From Octopus vulgaris (lineage: Eukaryota): a DNA stretch of 64,000 nucleotides. The notes beneath the pieces were generated by a model. The model made no database searches. It was given only the letters and a program-made list of their open reading frames with translations, and was not told where the DNA came from. The translations under genes were made by a program, and so were the position numbers. Below are positions 15,666 through 57,850 of this stretch, piece after piece (positions within the stretch are counted from its first letter, which is position 1; every line of letters begins with the position of its first letter). The stretch spans positions 21,018,001-21,082,000 of the forward strand of contig OX597819.1 in NCBI GenBank assembly GCA_951406725.2, in the 5' to 3' direction.

Positions 15666-15910
15666 ACATACAAAAACCGTTAGATTTACTTCAATATTTA
15701 AATTTAATTTGTGTCGAAATATTTTCGTCGCTCTGAAACCGTGATCTGTTCACTGACAAAACTTTAGCACGAAGTTTTTTCATTGAACTGGTCACGGTCT
15801 CAAAGTGACGAAAATATTTCGACTCAAATTAAATTTAAATGATGAAGAGAATCTAACGGTTTTTGTATGTTTTCAAATGACTTATAAACGTCTTCCACGC
15901 TGCAATTGTT
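15666..15910. mobile_element. Palindromic PLE terminal-repeat element with inverted HHR pair and 3' tail
   Basis: Inverted arms 15666-15764 / 15772-15870, then a unique 40-bp tail ending at (TA)n. Confidence 0.8.
15712..15758 (-). ncRNA. Hammerhead motif, G3:C8 core variant
   Basis: Minus strand tgtca GTGAACA gatcac-ggtttcaga-gcgac GAAA atat TT cgaca; the mirror arm gives perfect stem II gtcac/gtgac but a decayed core. Confidence 0.6.
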
Positions 15911-15922
15911 TATATATATATA

Positions 15923-16135
15923 GTTAATCCAAACAAGAAAACACAAAAAAACACAGCAACGTGAGGACGTGGAACAAATAAAGTATTATTGGACGCTCAG
16001 GAAAGAAGGGAAGGAGGGTTTAACGTTTCGAGCGGAGCTCTTCGTCGGAAACAAAGGAGAAGGAAAGATCCCGAGAAGGGAAGACAGAGGAAAAAAATTG
16101 CTGGCGGTGCTCACTAGGTCACATGTTGAAAGCAT
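15923..16135 (-). mobile_element. PLE terminal-repeat fragment carrying an HHR
   Basis: Abuts (TA)n; homologous to 63685-63846 (+); contains the motif at 16018-16052. Confidence 0.75.
16018..16052 (-). ncRNA. Minimal hammerhead motif (C4 variant)
   Basis: gttt CCGACGA a gagc-tcc-gctc GAAA cg TT aaac; stems I and II perfect, palindromic AACGTT stem III. Confidence 0.8.
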
Positions 16136-16179
16136 ATATATATCAAAGTTTGGTACAACGACAGCTCTTTCAAGTGTCG

Positions 16180-16355
16180 AGTGAACTCGAGTACATGGAC
16201 CTTAGTGCCGATCCGGTGCTTATCCTATTGACACTGAAATGATAAAAGGCAAAATTAAATTCAGCGGAACTTGACCTCAAAGTGTAAAGTCGTGCGAAAT
16301 GCCCCGCTTAGCATTTTGGCCTGCGTGCTAACGATTCTGCCAGATCATCGCCTTA
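16180..16355 (-). mobile_element. Degenerate SINE family B
   Basis: cgtgctaacgattctgccagatcatcgcc is the reverse complement of the family head. Confidence 0.7.
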
Positions 16356-17354
16356 AAGCTCGTAAAGATATGCCATATATAATGTAGAGCAGGCGATTCT
16401 TCACAAACGTGAAAACCACTTAGCTCGAATGCTTTTCATTGCACGTCTCCAAGATAATGTGAGAACAAGGAAATTAGTACAACTTAAACAATTTGTAGCC
16501 TGCAAGTTACAGAAAATATCTGTGTATAGTTGCTTAATCCGGCAATATAAAATATCTAGGCCTGGTTTGGTTTTCTCAAGTCCATTATACGAGATCCATA
16601 GTGCATAAGTGACCGAAGTGATATCATTCCTCTAAACCCGACGGTGAACTGCGAAAAGTTCAAGGCCAGTAATTTTTCGGGTAGGAGAGTTGACTGCATC
16701 AAACCCAATGTCTGTCTGTCGGTTTATGTTGTGCAACGCGATGGGGAGAAAGCTAGAGTCAACCTCGGCAGGATTTGATCTCCGGAAGCAAAAACATTAA
16801 ATACATTTTCTGGAAGAAACACAAGATTACGTGATCTTGGATGGCAGATTTTGACTGTTTATCTATCGTTGAGTTCTGTGTTTAAATAACCAGATAAGGG
16901 AATTTATAAGCTTCTTGAGAGGGTTAAATGGAAGTTAGCTTTAACATGAGATGCGAAAACATCAAAACACTATAAATTTTATACAGGACACGTTGAAGAT
17001 TAATATTTGTATAGCTAAAGTAGAATTAGAAGAATTTTTGCGAAGAGTAACTATAAAGCGTCAAGAATTTAATAAACAAATTAAATTTGCTAAATTTGTT
17101 TTTGGTTTTTCATTGTATTCAAACAAAACACGGATGTATGTTTTTTTTATATATTTATTTCAAGAAGAGGCACATTGAAATCGCTGAAAAATAAGCGAAG
17201 CACGTTTGTTTTCCATAACACGTATACACACACACACTTACAAACGCAAATACAACCATTCGTTTATTATATCTGTGTGTATGAATTTTTGTGCGTGTGT
17301 TAGGAGACCAACAAGACATTTATAGAAAAGCAGTTCCGTTGAAGCCACTCGAGC

Positions 17355-17778
17355 ACTCTTACTCCTTTACTCTTTTACTTGTTTCAGTCATTTGACTGCC
17401 TGCGGCCATGCTGGAGCAGCGCCTTTAATCGAGCAACTCGACCCCGAGACTTATTCTTTTGTAAGCCAAGTACTCATGCTATCGGTCTCTCTTGCCGAAC
17501 CGCTAAGTAACGGGGACATAAACTCACCAGCATCGGTTGTCAAGCAATGCTAGGGGGACAAACACAGACACACAAACACACACACGCATATATATATATG
17601 TATATATATAAACATATATACGACGGGCTTCTTTCAGTTTCCGTCTACCAAATCCACTCACAAGGCTTTGGTCGGCCTGAGGCTATAGTAGAAGACACTT
17701 GCCCAAGGTGCCACGCAGTGGGACTGAACTCGGTACCATGTGGTTGGTAAACAAGCTACTTACCACACAGCCACTCCT
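17355..17778 (-). mobile_element. SINE family A, full length
   Basis: Reverse complement of 6324-6748, with short tandem tail repeats. Confidence 0.9.
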
Positions 17779-18089
17779 ATCTTACAAGTGGTTCTCAGCA
17801 ACGTACTTACGAACTGCTTTGAAACAAATTTACAAGGGTAGAATGACGCAGTTGGGTTGATGCGGCCCATCAAAATATATCATATAATATTTGTCACAAG
17901 ACTAAACAAAATTAATGAAAATGACTTTGATAGTGAACTACGGAACGATGAAAGAATAAGTCAGAAACATGTTGTTATGCTCAGAATTGATTTCATAGTA
18001 TACATACAAATATACATATAAATATACACATGCATACACAAATATAAATATCTATATATGATTTAATGCATACAGGATTTACACATGTG

Positions 18090-54844: not shown

Positions 54845-55120
54845 AGTGGTCGTATACCGTCAACTCAATGTGACAGCACCGTAAGGGAATTACACCACCG
54901 CCATTTAACCCTAGGAAACATCGACGTCTCCTGTCGGCTTTAGAAATTCTCGAAACATATCTAATGGGGCACAGAGAGTATGTCAATAGCCAGCTTGAGG
55001 AGATGTCTTCCTGGGGCTACAAGCTACAGTAGCATCCACCCTTAGTGGTTAGCCACATTTATGTGACAAATATACTTCACGATGCCGTGCAGCTACTGTT
55101 CATACCTCGCTCAGAGACTT
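54845..55120 (+). mobile_element. Single-arm copy of the 39.3-kb element family
   Basis: caatagccagcttgaggagatgtcttcctggggctacaagcta...atacctcgctcaga matches 39570-39690. Confidence 0.75.
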
Positions 55121-55331
55121 ATATATATTCATTTATTCTTCTAGACTTTTCAGACATAAGGCGGTGTTGTTGCTGAAGATGTTTCTCACAAATACACACC
55201 CATTCAAATGAGAGCACCCTACATATATTACTGGTTTCCGACTTAAATACTTTATCATCATATTTCAGTGTTGCCATCTCGCCCCCTTAAATACCTTCCA
55301 TTTCTTATGTTACTCTACGAATTAGAATACC

Positions 55332-55563
55332 TATTTCTTTACTACCCACAAGGTGCTAAACACAGAGGGCTCGAACAAGGACAGACAAACGGATTAAGTC
55401 GATTATATCGACCCCAGTGTGTAACTGGTACTTATTTAATCGACCTCGAAAGGATGAAAGGCAAAGTCGACCTCGGCGGAATTTGAACTCAGAACGTAGC
55501 GGCTGACGAAATACGGCTACGCATTTCGCCCGGCGTGCTAACGTTTCTGCCAGCTCGCCGCCT
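55332..55563 (-). mobile_element. SINE family B, full length with 10-bp TSD
   Basis: Reverse complement of 63026-63256; ttagaatacc at 55322 and 55568. Confidence 0.9.
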
Positions 55564-56569
55564 TGAGTTAGAATACCCATTGGCTCTGTCATTTAAGCAT
55601 CACCTTCTTTGTTCATGCATGAGATACATTTGCATTCCATTTTGGTTTCTAATAGCATCAATATTTTCTTCTATTCTTTAAACATATCCATATTTGCATT
55701 TTCTACTCATTATTAAGTACATATTTACCAACAGAGTTTTATATTTGGATTGGCACGCTTTATGATAGAATTTCTGTCTGTAATCAAATAATATTTCCTG
55801 ACTAAGTACACATTCTGTTTTATTTTTTATGGCATTTGCATCAATATCAAAGCATCTATATTTGCTTAGAAGAGCTTATGGGTGTATGTTTACATATATA
55901 TATATATATATATATATATATATATATATATATATAGATAGATAGATAGATAGATAGATAGATAGATAGATAGATAGATAGATAGATACATAGATACATA
56001 GATAGATAGAAAGATGTATATGGCTGTTTATGTATATTTATAGTATATTTATATGCGCGTATCTCCTTGTATTTATGGATCAATACATATACATTCATGC
56101 ATACACACACACATATACAGGTGTATGTATGTATGTATGTATGTATGTATGTATGTATGTATGAAGGAAATGTAATGTAAATTACCTTATATATCCGTCG
56201 GAAGTTTTCAAATGAAACCAATTTAATTTAGAAACTACGAAGGAGCTATAAAGTGATGCGCAATCACACATGTCTGAACGCATTGCATCTAATAGCAGAA
56301 ACAGCTGCAAGCTAATGCAGTTGATTCCTGCTTCCCTATCATTTATTTAATCTCTTATTACACTCGGTATTCGTCTGACGCTTCATTCTTAGACGTATAT
56401 ACTGGGTTCTACACCAGCTTATACCGCTATGCCTTAGCATAATCACAAACTCACACGTAGATAAATAGATTTGTATGTATCTATAGTACACGTGCACGCA
56501 CATATATTGGTGCATGTATATATATATATATATATATATATATATATATATATATATATATATATATAA

Positions 56570-57445
56570 ATTAGAGAAGAACCACTATGTAGCATTTCAA
56601 CAATGAAATAATGATATAATTAAATTATACCACATAGAAAACATTAAATATACGATAAAACATATACTACTAATTGAGTAAAGTACAAAATAATAAATAA
56701 ATGGCATATAATTGGTAAAAAGACTACACGTGTTTCGTGGCTATATTTTTAAACTGATAACAGTAAAATCAATTCAATTTAAATATAGTCACTCTTTATG
56801 TCCATGATAAAAAGAATAAAATATACAAATAAGTAAGAAAATATAAATATATTTAAAAATACGTAATTTTACAATAAAATTCAAAAATGCTGTATCTGCC
56901 GCGTGAGCTTATATACTATCACCCACATAATCAAGTGCTGCCTTAAAATACCTGCAAGATACTCCCGTGAGATATATCATTGTTTCCAAAAACACACTTA
57001 CGATGCAATCCACAGGAGCATATTTTTCTCATCGCAATATAAGCAACACACTAGAATAAGAAGTTATTCACACTTTTAAAAATTGACATCAATTGATACA
57101 CCATACTAGAAGAAGCAGCACAAGCCAGATGTTTTCGTATGGGACAGAGAACAGATATTATGCCGTAAAGTAGAGATCAACAAGCCAATCGATGTAGATG
57201 CGTAAAAAAATAAATATACAATGGAAAAATATCTATTGAGAACTAATGAAGAACTTACTGCGCTTAGTATCCTAGTCGTAAATTTTCATTTTTACCAATT
57301 ATTTTAAATGAAACAACGAATTTCCATGAAACCCAAAATGATTCGCATTCTGAAAATAAATTCGATTAGCAGAACAGTGAAAACTACTAAAACATTCTTC
57401 GGATTCTTGGTTTGAGGTTTATTTGTGAATATTTTCTCACTGCCT
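56570..57445. mobile_element. PLE-derived fragment with decayed HHR on the minus strand (56721-56803)
   Basis: ggac ATAAAGA gtgactatattt...aaatatagccac GAAA cacgtg TA gtct; flanked by (TA)n. Confidence 0.6.
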
Positions 57446-57500
57446 ATATATATATATATATATATATATATATATATATATATATATATATATATATATA

Positions 57501-57850
57501 AAGGAAATGAAGAAAATGCTGACAAAATAATTTTAGTAAGGGGGAGTGTATTTAATTAGGTGAAAGTTCTTTTTACCGGTTGCGCATTTGTTATGCTTAT
57601 CAAAAATATTGTCTTAAGAGAGATAGAGTTCCTTTCTGATAGATTTTTTTTCTCTTACAAGAGAAAAAAATCTATCAGAAAGGAACTCTATCTCTCTTAA
57701 AAAATATCTTTTGATAAGCATAACAAATGCGCAACCGGTATAAAGAACTTTCACCTAATTAAATACACTCTCCCTTACTTAAATTATTTTGTCAGCATTT
57801 ATTTTATTTCCTTTTTTTATATATCACAACTCGTGTTCCACATCTCCTTT
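57501..57850. mobile_element. 313-bp near-perfect palindrome with inverted HHR-like pair and tail
   Basis: Arms 57501-57656 / 57659-57813; (TA)n on both sides. Confidence 0.9.
57569..57745. ncRNA. Pair of hammerhead-like motifs, U3:A8 plus C13 variant
   Basis: TTGATAA gcat-aacaa-atgc GCAA ccgg TA in both arms (minus 57569-57606 with ttt/aaa stem I; plus 57707-57745). Confidence 0.65.

Follow-up and report, generated by a model that had tools for sequence, protein, structure and literature searches.

Introduction

Endonuclease-bearing (EN+) Penelope-like elements (PLEs) are described as inserting in units that comprise a pseudo-long terminal repeat (pLTR), an adjacent inverted 5'-truncated copy, and a 30-40-bp tail (Craig et al. 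2021, PMC8557442; Arkhipova et al. 2013, PMC3846280), and the same mirror-and-tail form appears in PMC8969392. In this study, we analyzed seven palindromic elements with hammerhead ribozyme (HHR) motifs in 64,000 nucleotides of Octopus vulgaris DNA (GenBank assembly GCA_951406725.2, contig OX597819.1, positions 21,018,001 to 21,082,000 of the forward strand; hereafter, the window). The elements were named E1 (15666), E2 (19360), E3 (23548), E4 (28055), E5 (39243), E6 (44352), and E7 (57501). A first-pass annotation of the window had regarded them as self-neutralizing insertions of PLE origin.

Several described systems are close to these elements. Pairs of minimal HHRs located 100-700 bp apart on opposite strands have been reported as truncated PLEs (Cervera and de la Pena 2014, PMC4209133). 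The PAc protein of an Anolis Poseidon element nicks and extends both target strands and uses two internal reverse transcriptase (RT) start sites, the spacing of which equals the tail, and the HHR was dispensable in vitro (Frangieh et al. 2024, PMC11167929). The Penelope element of D. virilis carries an internal promoter in its pLTR (PMC2377424), and retrozymes of 350-390 bp have been reported in mussels (PMC7229834).

The window elements share with EN+ PLE units the head-to-head inverted copy, the one-sided tail, the HHR in the terminal module, the variable target-site duplication (TSD) or (TA)n target, and the palindrome or microhomology at the inverted junction; E3, E6, and E7 additionally share linked open reading frames (ORFs) for RT and a GIY-YIG-type endonuclease (EN). 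They differ from the published units in being shrunk to the module alone, in occurring in thousands of copies, and in having tails of approximately 30 to 113 bp. E2 (approximately 367 nt), E4 (565 nt), and E5 (approximately 360 nt) resemble non-LTR (long terminal repeat) retrozymes in exhibiting one type I HHR and partial tandems (PMC7229834; 10.64898/2026.07.22.740005), but unlike retrozymes they bear the PLE inversion-and-tail signature; the word "inverted" is absent from the main text of PMC7229834. The mirror architecture is real, recurrent, and already known, and it needs no new function, whereas the counts of center variation, arm sharing, and 5' pile-up reported here come from this analysis. 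Our findings strongly suggest that all seven are PLE terminal modules inserted as short units of the established inverted-repeat-plus-tail type, three of which continue into RT/EN ORFs elsewhere in the genome, and that the mirror is likely rebuilt at each insertion.

Palindromes and their families

Self-BLAST identified inverted pairs at 15666-15870, 19368-19914, 23548-23769, 28170-29063, 39266-39646, 44358-44512, and 57501-57813. The real window contained eight local palindrome bins, compared with none in any of the 10 block-shuffled controls. Each of the seven palindromes is real, and their families comprise hundreds to thousands of genomic copies: exact tail-pattern matches numbered 5,597 for E6, 757 for E7, 4,040 for E3, and 2,034 for E1, and the reversed control patterns yielded 0. 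The first-pass annotation had described six palindromes with outward-pointing HHRs. All of the inverted pairs were confirmed, but E2 and E4 are not simple palindromes. E5, which it had described as inverted arms around a single HHR, has one core at 39461-39467 and an inverted arm that stops short of the HHR. The main unit lies on the plus strand in six of the seven elements, which is compatible with chance (two-sided P of approximately 0.13, by hand).

Fixed ends, variable centers, and shared arms

We analyzed position-ordered, tail-anchored samples of 90 E6, 50 E7, 67 E3, and 30 E1 copies, drawn from the 100 places listed per search. Inverted copies accounted for 60 of the 90 E6, 30 of the 50 E7, and 38 of the 67 E3 copies, and inversion was also observed in the E1, E2, E4, and E5 families; a further 15 E6 calls of "inverted" were excluded, most of them having matched long upstream arms or the (TA)n of the reference. 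The outer end of the inverted arm was fixed, at +71 in 48 of 60 E6 copies and at +108/109 in 29 of 30 E7 copies (signed offsets are relative to the first HHR core base). At the center, the 60 E6 copies had 52 different junctions and the 17 scored E7 copies had 16, and the E6 junctions comprised 31 overlaps, 9 blunt joints, and 20 with extra bases. The first-pass annotation had proposed comparing the center across genomic copies, a variable center indicating inversion at each insertion, and the E6 and E7 counts give this answer.

The arms of a copy closely resembled each other. In the position-ordered E6 pairs, 12 of 243 informative cells differed (0.049, compared with 0.40 after shuffling, the junction column being left out), subfamily calls were concordant in 63 of 68 pairs, intermediate in 5, and opposite in 0, and private changes were present in both arms of single copies. 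A whole-unit control was provided by 13 E1 copies that lie within a larger repeat and share four arm mismatches (in 13, 10, 13, and 13 of the 13 copies), whereas among the dispersed E6 and E7 copies no mismatch was common to more than three, the priming-junction column excepted. Because the arms share a haplotype and dispersed copies carry no inherited mismatches, the mirror half is likely rebuilt from the same source element whenever an insertion occurs.

The insertion sites were examined for TSDs. In E3, TSDs of 8-14 bp were found in 25 of 38 inverted copies (without a shuffled control), and the window copy has one of 11 bp (left copy 23537..23547, right copy 23801..23811, both on the plus strand). 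In E1, TSDs of at least 7 bp were present in 12 of 15 inverted copies compared with 0.09 after shuffling, a count that leaves out one duplicate, the carrier copies, and copies lacking an inverted end. E2, E4, E6, and E7 sit in (TA)n, in which this 2.8-Gb genome is rich. The variable TSDs fit target-primed reverse transcription and not a transposase. Different PLE stumps were also found stacked in one (TA)n tract, including tail-to-tail pairs (L040, L024, L252, L253/L261, and L503), and this stacking fits shared microsatellite targeting.

The 5' ends of the arms were concentrated at particular sites. In E6, 41 of 150 arms end at -19..-12, compared with 2 in an equal window upstream, and in E7, 21 of 47 arms end at -62..-53, again compared with 2. 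Solo copies begin at the same 5' site as the mirror centers. In E6, an extended stem I also has its edge at this site, and the sites of E7 and E3 lie approximately 55 and 160 nt upstream of the HHR, respectively. Because this distance varies among the three families, an RNA 5' end probably explains all three better.

Parent elements

The PLE origin proposed in the first-pass annotation, from an inverted copy with a short extension, proved right, and E3, E6, and E7 are continuous with RT/EN ORFs elsewhere in the genome. The E6 module continues upstream into a 3' untranslated region (UTR) and an RT/EN ORF (L259, L260, and L262), and in tandem copies (L332, L335, and L348) it runs on into the 5' UTR and the ORF start. 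Its motifs (RWK, DKT, no CCHH, CxxC and CxH around conserved E and N) and its (TA)n target match the Hydra clade as described in PMC8557442, with F replacing the second C expected in the Hydra linker CxCX5C. The Hydra-type parent ORF copies are 98-99% alike, and a PDB search with this ORF returned nothing significant. E7 is joined to a Neptune-type ORF (L253 and L261), with a GIY-YIG Pfam match (E 1e-6) in L269; a CX2-5CxxC linker before a GIY-YIG domain with internal cysteines and histidines (L261 and L269) matches the Neptune clade. Of 20 EN-anchored loci, 19 have E3 behind an RT+EN ORF, and its C-terminal EN without the CX2-5CxxC linker and its DKG motif (translation of L602, by eye) match the Penelope/Poseidon clade. 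A search with the N-terminal region revealed that the E3 tail leads in frame into the ORF start (L541, L546, and L561); a search with the tail-plus-ATG pattern revealed no common continuation among the 100 matches listed. Pfam detected only RVT_1 in the E3 ORF, GIY-YIG in the E7 ORF, and no domain in the E6 ORFs, the remaining motifs being read by eye, and the labels Hydra (E6), Neptune (E7), and Poseidon (E3) are motif-based rather than tree placements.

We also observed a young family of Neptune-type PLEs in which many 781-aa open frames are intact (e.g., L467 and L472). This family and the Hydra-type E6 parent, with its closely similar copies, may both be active.

The E2, E4, and E5 monomers are non-coding, form partial tandems, and have one type I HHR each, the period of E5 being taken from one locus (L135). 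Transposase-type TSDs together with a lack of PLE ORFs, which the first-pass annotation had named as evidence against its view, were not what was observed: the E3 TSDs were 8-14 bp long, and ORF links were found in E3, E6, and E7.

Hammerhead anatomy

The family majority sequences exhibited HHR-type anatomy pointing outward. Those of E2 and E5 are canonical type I HHRs, and those of E3, E4, and E6 are minimal or dimer-type HHRs with a palindromic stem III. The E1 family core has G3-C8 swapped, the E7 family core is atypical (U3-A8/GCAA) with a doubtful stem I, and E6 carries U4C in 77 of 122 arms. The core with three stems was present in the majority sequences of E2-E5, and variant cores were found in E1, E6, and E7. 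Rfam identified no HHR at its gathering score, nor did one occur in the listed 150 of its 243 matches with E<=1, and a strict HHR descriptor recovered 0 of the 7 window elements. When the 13 window arms were inspected by eye, four contained CUGANGA and GAAA (E2L, E3R, E4R, and E5), stem I being weak or lost in three; five contained the family variant core (E1L, E6R, E6L, E7R, and E7L); and four were broken (E1R, E2R, E3L, and E4L). Stem II position +16 of E6 (window 44463) was A in 56, G in 37, T in 24, and C in 19 arms and differed between the arms of some copies.

The minimal PLE HHRs described in PMC4209133 are similar to those found here in their palindromic or absent stem III, the extra base before stem II, and the U3-A8 covariation. 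The G3-C8 core of E1, the U4C of E6, and the GCAA in place of GAAA in E7 differ from them, and these variants were not met in the portions of PMC4209133 available to us. A scheme in which dimer-forming HHRs pair RNAs from two sources found no support in E6, where 0 of 68 pairs join opposite subfamilies.

Insertion model and alternatives

On the basis of the fixed ends, variable centers, and shared arms, we propose the following mechanism. The RT-endonuclease would nick both target strands, as judged from the Anolis PLE in vitro, and each nick would prime complementary DNA (cDNA) at one of two fixed internal start sites on the RNA, the spacing of which would correspond to the tail. Each cDNA would then head for the RNA 5' end, either stopping at random or running off, and the two cDNA ends would be joined head to head via microhomology or filler bases. 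The pile-up sites would represent RNA 5' ends, and the commonest mirrors would be double "run-off" cDNAs. In E3, this 5' end coincides with a head carrying A and B boxes and probably derived from transfer RNA (tRNA), so that the template may well be a polymerase III transcript. The mirror would be a by-product of integration, the HHR a passenger of the module, and the burial of the HHR in a hairpin a side effect. The thousands of stumps would then provide a genomic read-out of the PLE integration step in three clades at once, comparable with the Anolis in vitro system and covering two fixed starts, one source, independent truncation, and a fixed RNA 5' end. A literature search, with subscription papers, Repbase, and supplements outside its scope, revealed no two-primer account of PLE mirrors.

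Several observations weigh against this mechanism. The identity of the arms could also arise from later template switching or repair within the palindrome. Position +16 of E6 differs between arms (T/G in 3 and T/C in 2 of 83), the E7 center base is found in both orientations, and the arm concordance of E7 is weaker (9 of 66 differ, compared with 0.47 after shuffling and a shuffled minimum of 0.136). The pile-up sites hold short palindromes, and that of E6 is the extended stem I edge; preferred joining or an RT stop could therefore contribute. The two-primer model would be carried over from one in vitro system. No partner ORF of E1, E2, E4, or E5 was found among 30 GIY-YIG loci, 98 family loci, and 16 tail-extension loci, so the use of PLE enzymes there is suggested by the insertion signature; full-length copies of these four families may be rare. 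No E7 tail continuing into an ORF was seen in the sampled loci.

An improbable alternative is that a single cDNA folds back and primes itself, or that a quasi-palindrome is repaired later, with no second primer. The shared haplotypes of the arms are compatible with this explanation, as is the commonest E6 junction, which overlaps at a 4-base palindrome, and self-priming has been proposed for Adineta PLEs (PMC3846280). However, either arm may be the longer, and both are cut independently; four copies (L164, L192, L194, and L203) possess almost only the tail on the sense side together with a full inverted arm. The common 5' start of solo copies and mirror centers likewise argues against fold-back, and the inverted arm ends at a fixed internal site short of the tail, which matches the two RT starts described in PMC11167929.

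The first-pass annotation had favored a functional explanation, namely that the antisense arm silences the ribozyme in read-through pre-mRNA and that mirrors are kept, tolerated in introns, and feed ADAR or Dicer. We consider this explanation unlikely as well. The locking of the HHR in a long hairpin is predicted in the six two-armed copies, in which 43-66 nt of the HHR span pair outside the HHR (37 of 39 in E7), but in E5 only 14 of 45 nt do so; full HHR burial in six of the seven elements is the point in its favor. In addition, Xenopus retrozymes are reported to be somewhat depleted from introns (10.64898/2026.07.22.740005), and this depletion suggests that intact HHRs in genes may cost fitness. 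By contrast, the 90 position-ordered E6 copies included 22 with a full HHR on both strands, 26 with a full HHR and nothing opposite, and 8 that were partly covered. Unshielded full HHRs were as common as shielded ones, leaving self-neutralization and intron tolerance unsupported. Divergence did not differ between inverted and non-inverted copies (0.015 vs 0.020, P=0.13), inversion was similarly frequent in the young E6 and E7 and the older E3 samples (60/90, 30/50, and 38/67), and 4 of the 13 window arms are broken. Moreover, as monomers, minimal PLE HHRs are reported to have little or no cleavage activity (PMC4209133, PMC11167929). Among the 120 longest of 176 non-repetitive ORFs of the window, Pfam found retroelement domains and sub-threshold matches only, and no host exon.

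It is very improbable that the palindrome with its tail is itself mobile, as a miniature inverted-repeat transposable element (MITE) or self-propagating hairpin with fixed ends and center: 40 of 40 scored E6 and E7 copies from best-match searches had nearly one center and 13 of 30 tail-anchored E1 copies are one fixed palindrome, but best-match samples are biased toward the query, the position-ordered copies differ at the junction as described above, the 13 E1 copies share long flanks and were carried by a larger repeat, TSD length varies, and E3, E6, and E7 are continuous with PLE ORFs. The fixed center obtained from the best-match searches was rejected as an ascertainment bias revealed by the position-ordered samples. 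A MITE, with symmetric fixed termini, a fixed interior, and a fixed TSD, was likewise rejected in view of the one-sided tail, the variable center, and TSDs of 8-14 bp. The warning in the first-pass annotation that repeat finders would mislabel such elements proved real in kind, as the hairpins match microRNA (miRNA) models in Rfam, but these matches are below threshold. The hairpins can be mis-annotated as MITEs or miRNA precursors.

The tRNA-like head of the E3 family

In the E3 family, the HHR is preceded by a 75-nt head that has its A box at +8 and its B box at +51 and is followed by (AAT)n. The head is colinear with tRNA-Arg genes of this genome (z 7.5 and 7.1; best of 20 genes tried) and has 3,448 exact pattern matches. 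In the first 30 head-anchored copies, which include a few near-duplicates, 23 start at -7..+8 of the head and 1 extends past -30, and 23 of the 55 tail-anchored arms reaching the head end at -5..+5 (hand tally). The head lies closely behind the ORF stop in 19 of 20 EN-anchored loci. An ATG located approximately 40 nt upstream of the HHR core is conserved in 62 of 63 modules, and it reads in frame through the HHR and the tail into the ORF.

Transcription by polymerase III ends at runs of four or more T (T4). The 2,737-nt E3 majority sequence contains 0 T4 runs (expected 5.0, P=0.004, base shuffle), and all four scored copies lack them over their head-to-tail length. Decayed E3 copies contain 35 T4 runs in 76,371 nt (0.46/kb), and 12 control PLE ORF stretches (eight related ORFs from metagenome contigs and four Hydra/Neptune stretches of this genome) contain 68 in 14,250 nt (4.8/kb), the controls being mostly above the shuffled expectation, with L613 below it.

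The explanation to which we give somewhat better than an even chance is that the head is a captured short interspersed nuclear element (SINE) that serves as a source of short polymerase III RNAs or only indicates where polymerase II starts, that the ORF is transcribed by polymerase II, and that the lack of T runs is compositional. G4 runs are absent from E3 too (0, expected 3.3), the T4 deficit has a P of 0.07 under a first-order Markov null, and per-segment synonymous shuffles of T4 gave P = 0.14, 0.82, and 0.15. AATAAA is as scarce in other PLEs, and its counts do not separate E3 from the controls. The conservation of the A and B boxes only slightly exceeds that of the remaining head (0.949 vs 0.921), neither ARAGORN nor Rfam calls the head a tRNA, and among the sampled loci no copy has the head directly upstream of a full ORF. 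Points on the other side are the T4 count of the controls compared with that of E3, the start of copies at head +1, and the start codon just behind the head and linker. Of the features of a tRNA-derived SINE, E3 has the A/B-box head with copies starting at +1; it is not a separate non-coding element, because the head follows the ORF in 19 of 20 loci and the module holds the ORF start codon.

Tentatively, the sequence may instead point to E3 as an autonomous coding PLE that polymerase III would transcribe over its whole length, starting from a captured tRNA promoter. The transcript would comprise the head, the (AAT)n leader, the start codon, the HHR, the tail, and the RT/endonuclease ORF and would meet no terminator before the flank; this promoter would also yield thousands of SINE-like short copies, and PLE mirror centers would map the RNA 5' ends of each family. 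If true, E3 would break the rule that autonomous retroelements use polymerase II and that polymerase III elements are short non-coding followers, and the translation of an uncapped RNA would then need explaining. A link between self-cleaving ribozymes and cap-independent initiation has been drawn (PMC13725137).

E3 shares a tRNA-derived A/B-box head in the terminal repeat with tRNA SINEs, with the HHR-bearing SINE-like repeats of Schistosoma, which are described as combining a polymerase III promoter and an HHR (PMC6765202), and with the TRIMp3 elements Helenus and Cassandra (Kojima 2024, PMC10886601), for which the autonomous partners are argued to require polymerase II. These small-RNA-headed relatives are non-coding, whereas the E3 head belongs to a full RT/EN ORF element with a sense strand free of T4. 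The Anolis PAc element and E3 are alike in that the HHR overlaps the ORF start in the former and lies inside the coding frame in the latter; the tRNA-like head is present in E3, and none is described for PAc in the text of PMC11167929 available to us. The literature search described above found no tRNA-headed or polymerase III-driven PLE.

Individual elements and other features of the window

E1 (15655..15911) is an inverted pair of an approximately 235-nt HHR module with cores at 15783-15789 (plus strand, broken) and 15747-15753 (minus strand). Its left arm is shortened, and the family tail, which lies further out, is missing from the window copy. Elsewhere in the genome, 13 of 30 E1 tail matches (L302, L311-L314, L316, L319, L324, and L326-L330) belong to a single composite repeat that is at least 1.3 kb long, contains short internal tandem repeats, and is dispersed over 54 Mb of one contig.

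E2 (19360..19935), within (TA)n, consists of a retrozyme-like monomer of approximately 367 nt on the plus strand (19558-19914) with a broken core at 19733-19739 and an inverted partial copy at 19360-19555; a further fragment lies at 19062-19295. It represents a monomer plus a partial tandem with an asymmetric center, and 9 of 25 HHR-anchored E2 loci exhibited tandem read-through and 7 of 25 adjacent inversion. E4 (28057..29063), also within (TA)n, is a 565-nt monomer in a 1.2-fold tandem on the minus strand, with a 113-bp tail at 28057-28169, an inverted arm at 28745-29063, and an intact core at 28835-28841; its inversion points vary from copy to copy. E5 (39245..39700) is a retrozyme-like monomer on the plus strand with a single HHR core (39461-39467), an inverted arm from 39245 to approximately 39367 that is too short for an HHR, and a tail from approximately 39647 to 39700.

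The three remaining elements are PLE stumps. E3 (23548..23800) is of the Poseidon type and lies inside a long interspersed nuclear element (LINE). Its inverted arm extends from 23548 to approximately 23665, its sense arm contains a minimal HHR with the core at 23685-23691 and GAAACGUU at 23713-23720, its tail extends from approximately 23770 to 23800, and the tRNA-like head is not in the window copy. When contigs of four runs were aligned on E3, sharp ends at 23551 and 23799-23801 recurred and the joints were many and different; these contigs carry no information on strand, level, or editing. E6 (44357..44584) is a young Hydra-type stump in (TA)n with an inverted arm from 44357 to approximately 44432, the center CTAG at 44433-44436, a U4C minimal HHR in the sense arm at 44447-44476, and a tail at 44514-44584. 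E7 (57501..57855) is a Neptune-type stump in (TA)n with arms at 57501-57813 around a center at approximately 57657, an atypical HHR-like core at 57711-57740, and a tail at 57814-57855. The right-hand tails of the first-pass annotation were recovered in E3 (approximately 31 bp), E5 (approximately 54 bp), E6 (approximately 70 bp), and E7 (approximately 33-40 bp), but the "tail" of E1 is its shortened left arm and the 113-bp tail of E4 sits on the left.

A broken Neptune-type PLE ORF lies on the plus strand at 49864..52220 in three frames, with RT, a CX4CxxC linker, and GIY-YIG, and shares 57% identity with the protein of the E7 partner. An HHR-like motif at 52790-52825, approximately 570 bp downstream of this ORF and beyond a (TA)n tract, does not match any of the seven elements. 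Among the loci recovered outside the window, the GIY-YIG match at L478 looks like an exon of a host structure-specific nuclease, not a PLE, which we take to resemble SLX1. Solo CUGAUGA...GAAA motifs with a short stem II occur outside the palindromes at 2553-2590 and 24786-24812. A 112-aa frame at 46502-46840 on the minus strand has no Pfam match and by eye is similar to a decayed DNA-transposon protein. LINE reverse-transcriptase fragments were found at 23803-24646, 21187-21828, 41624-42463, and 10292-11060, and E3 sits inside one of them.

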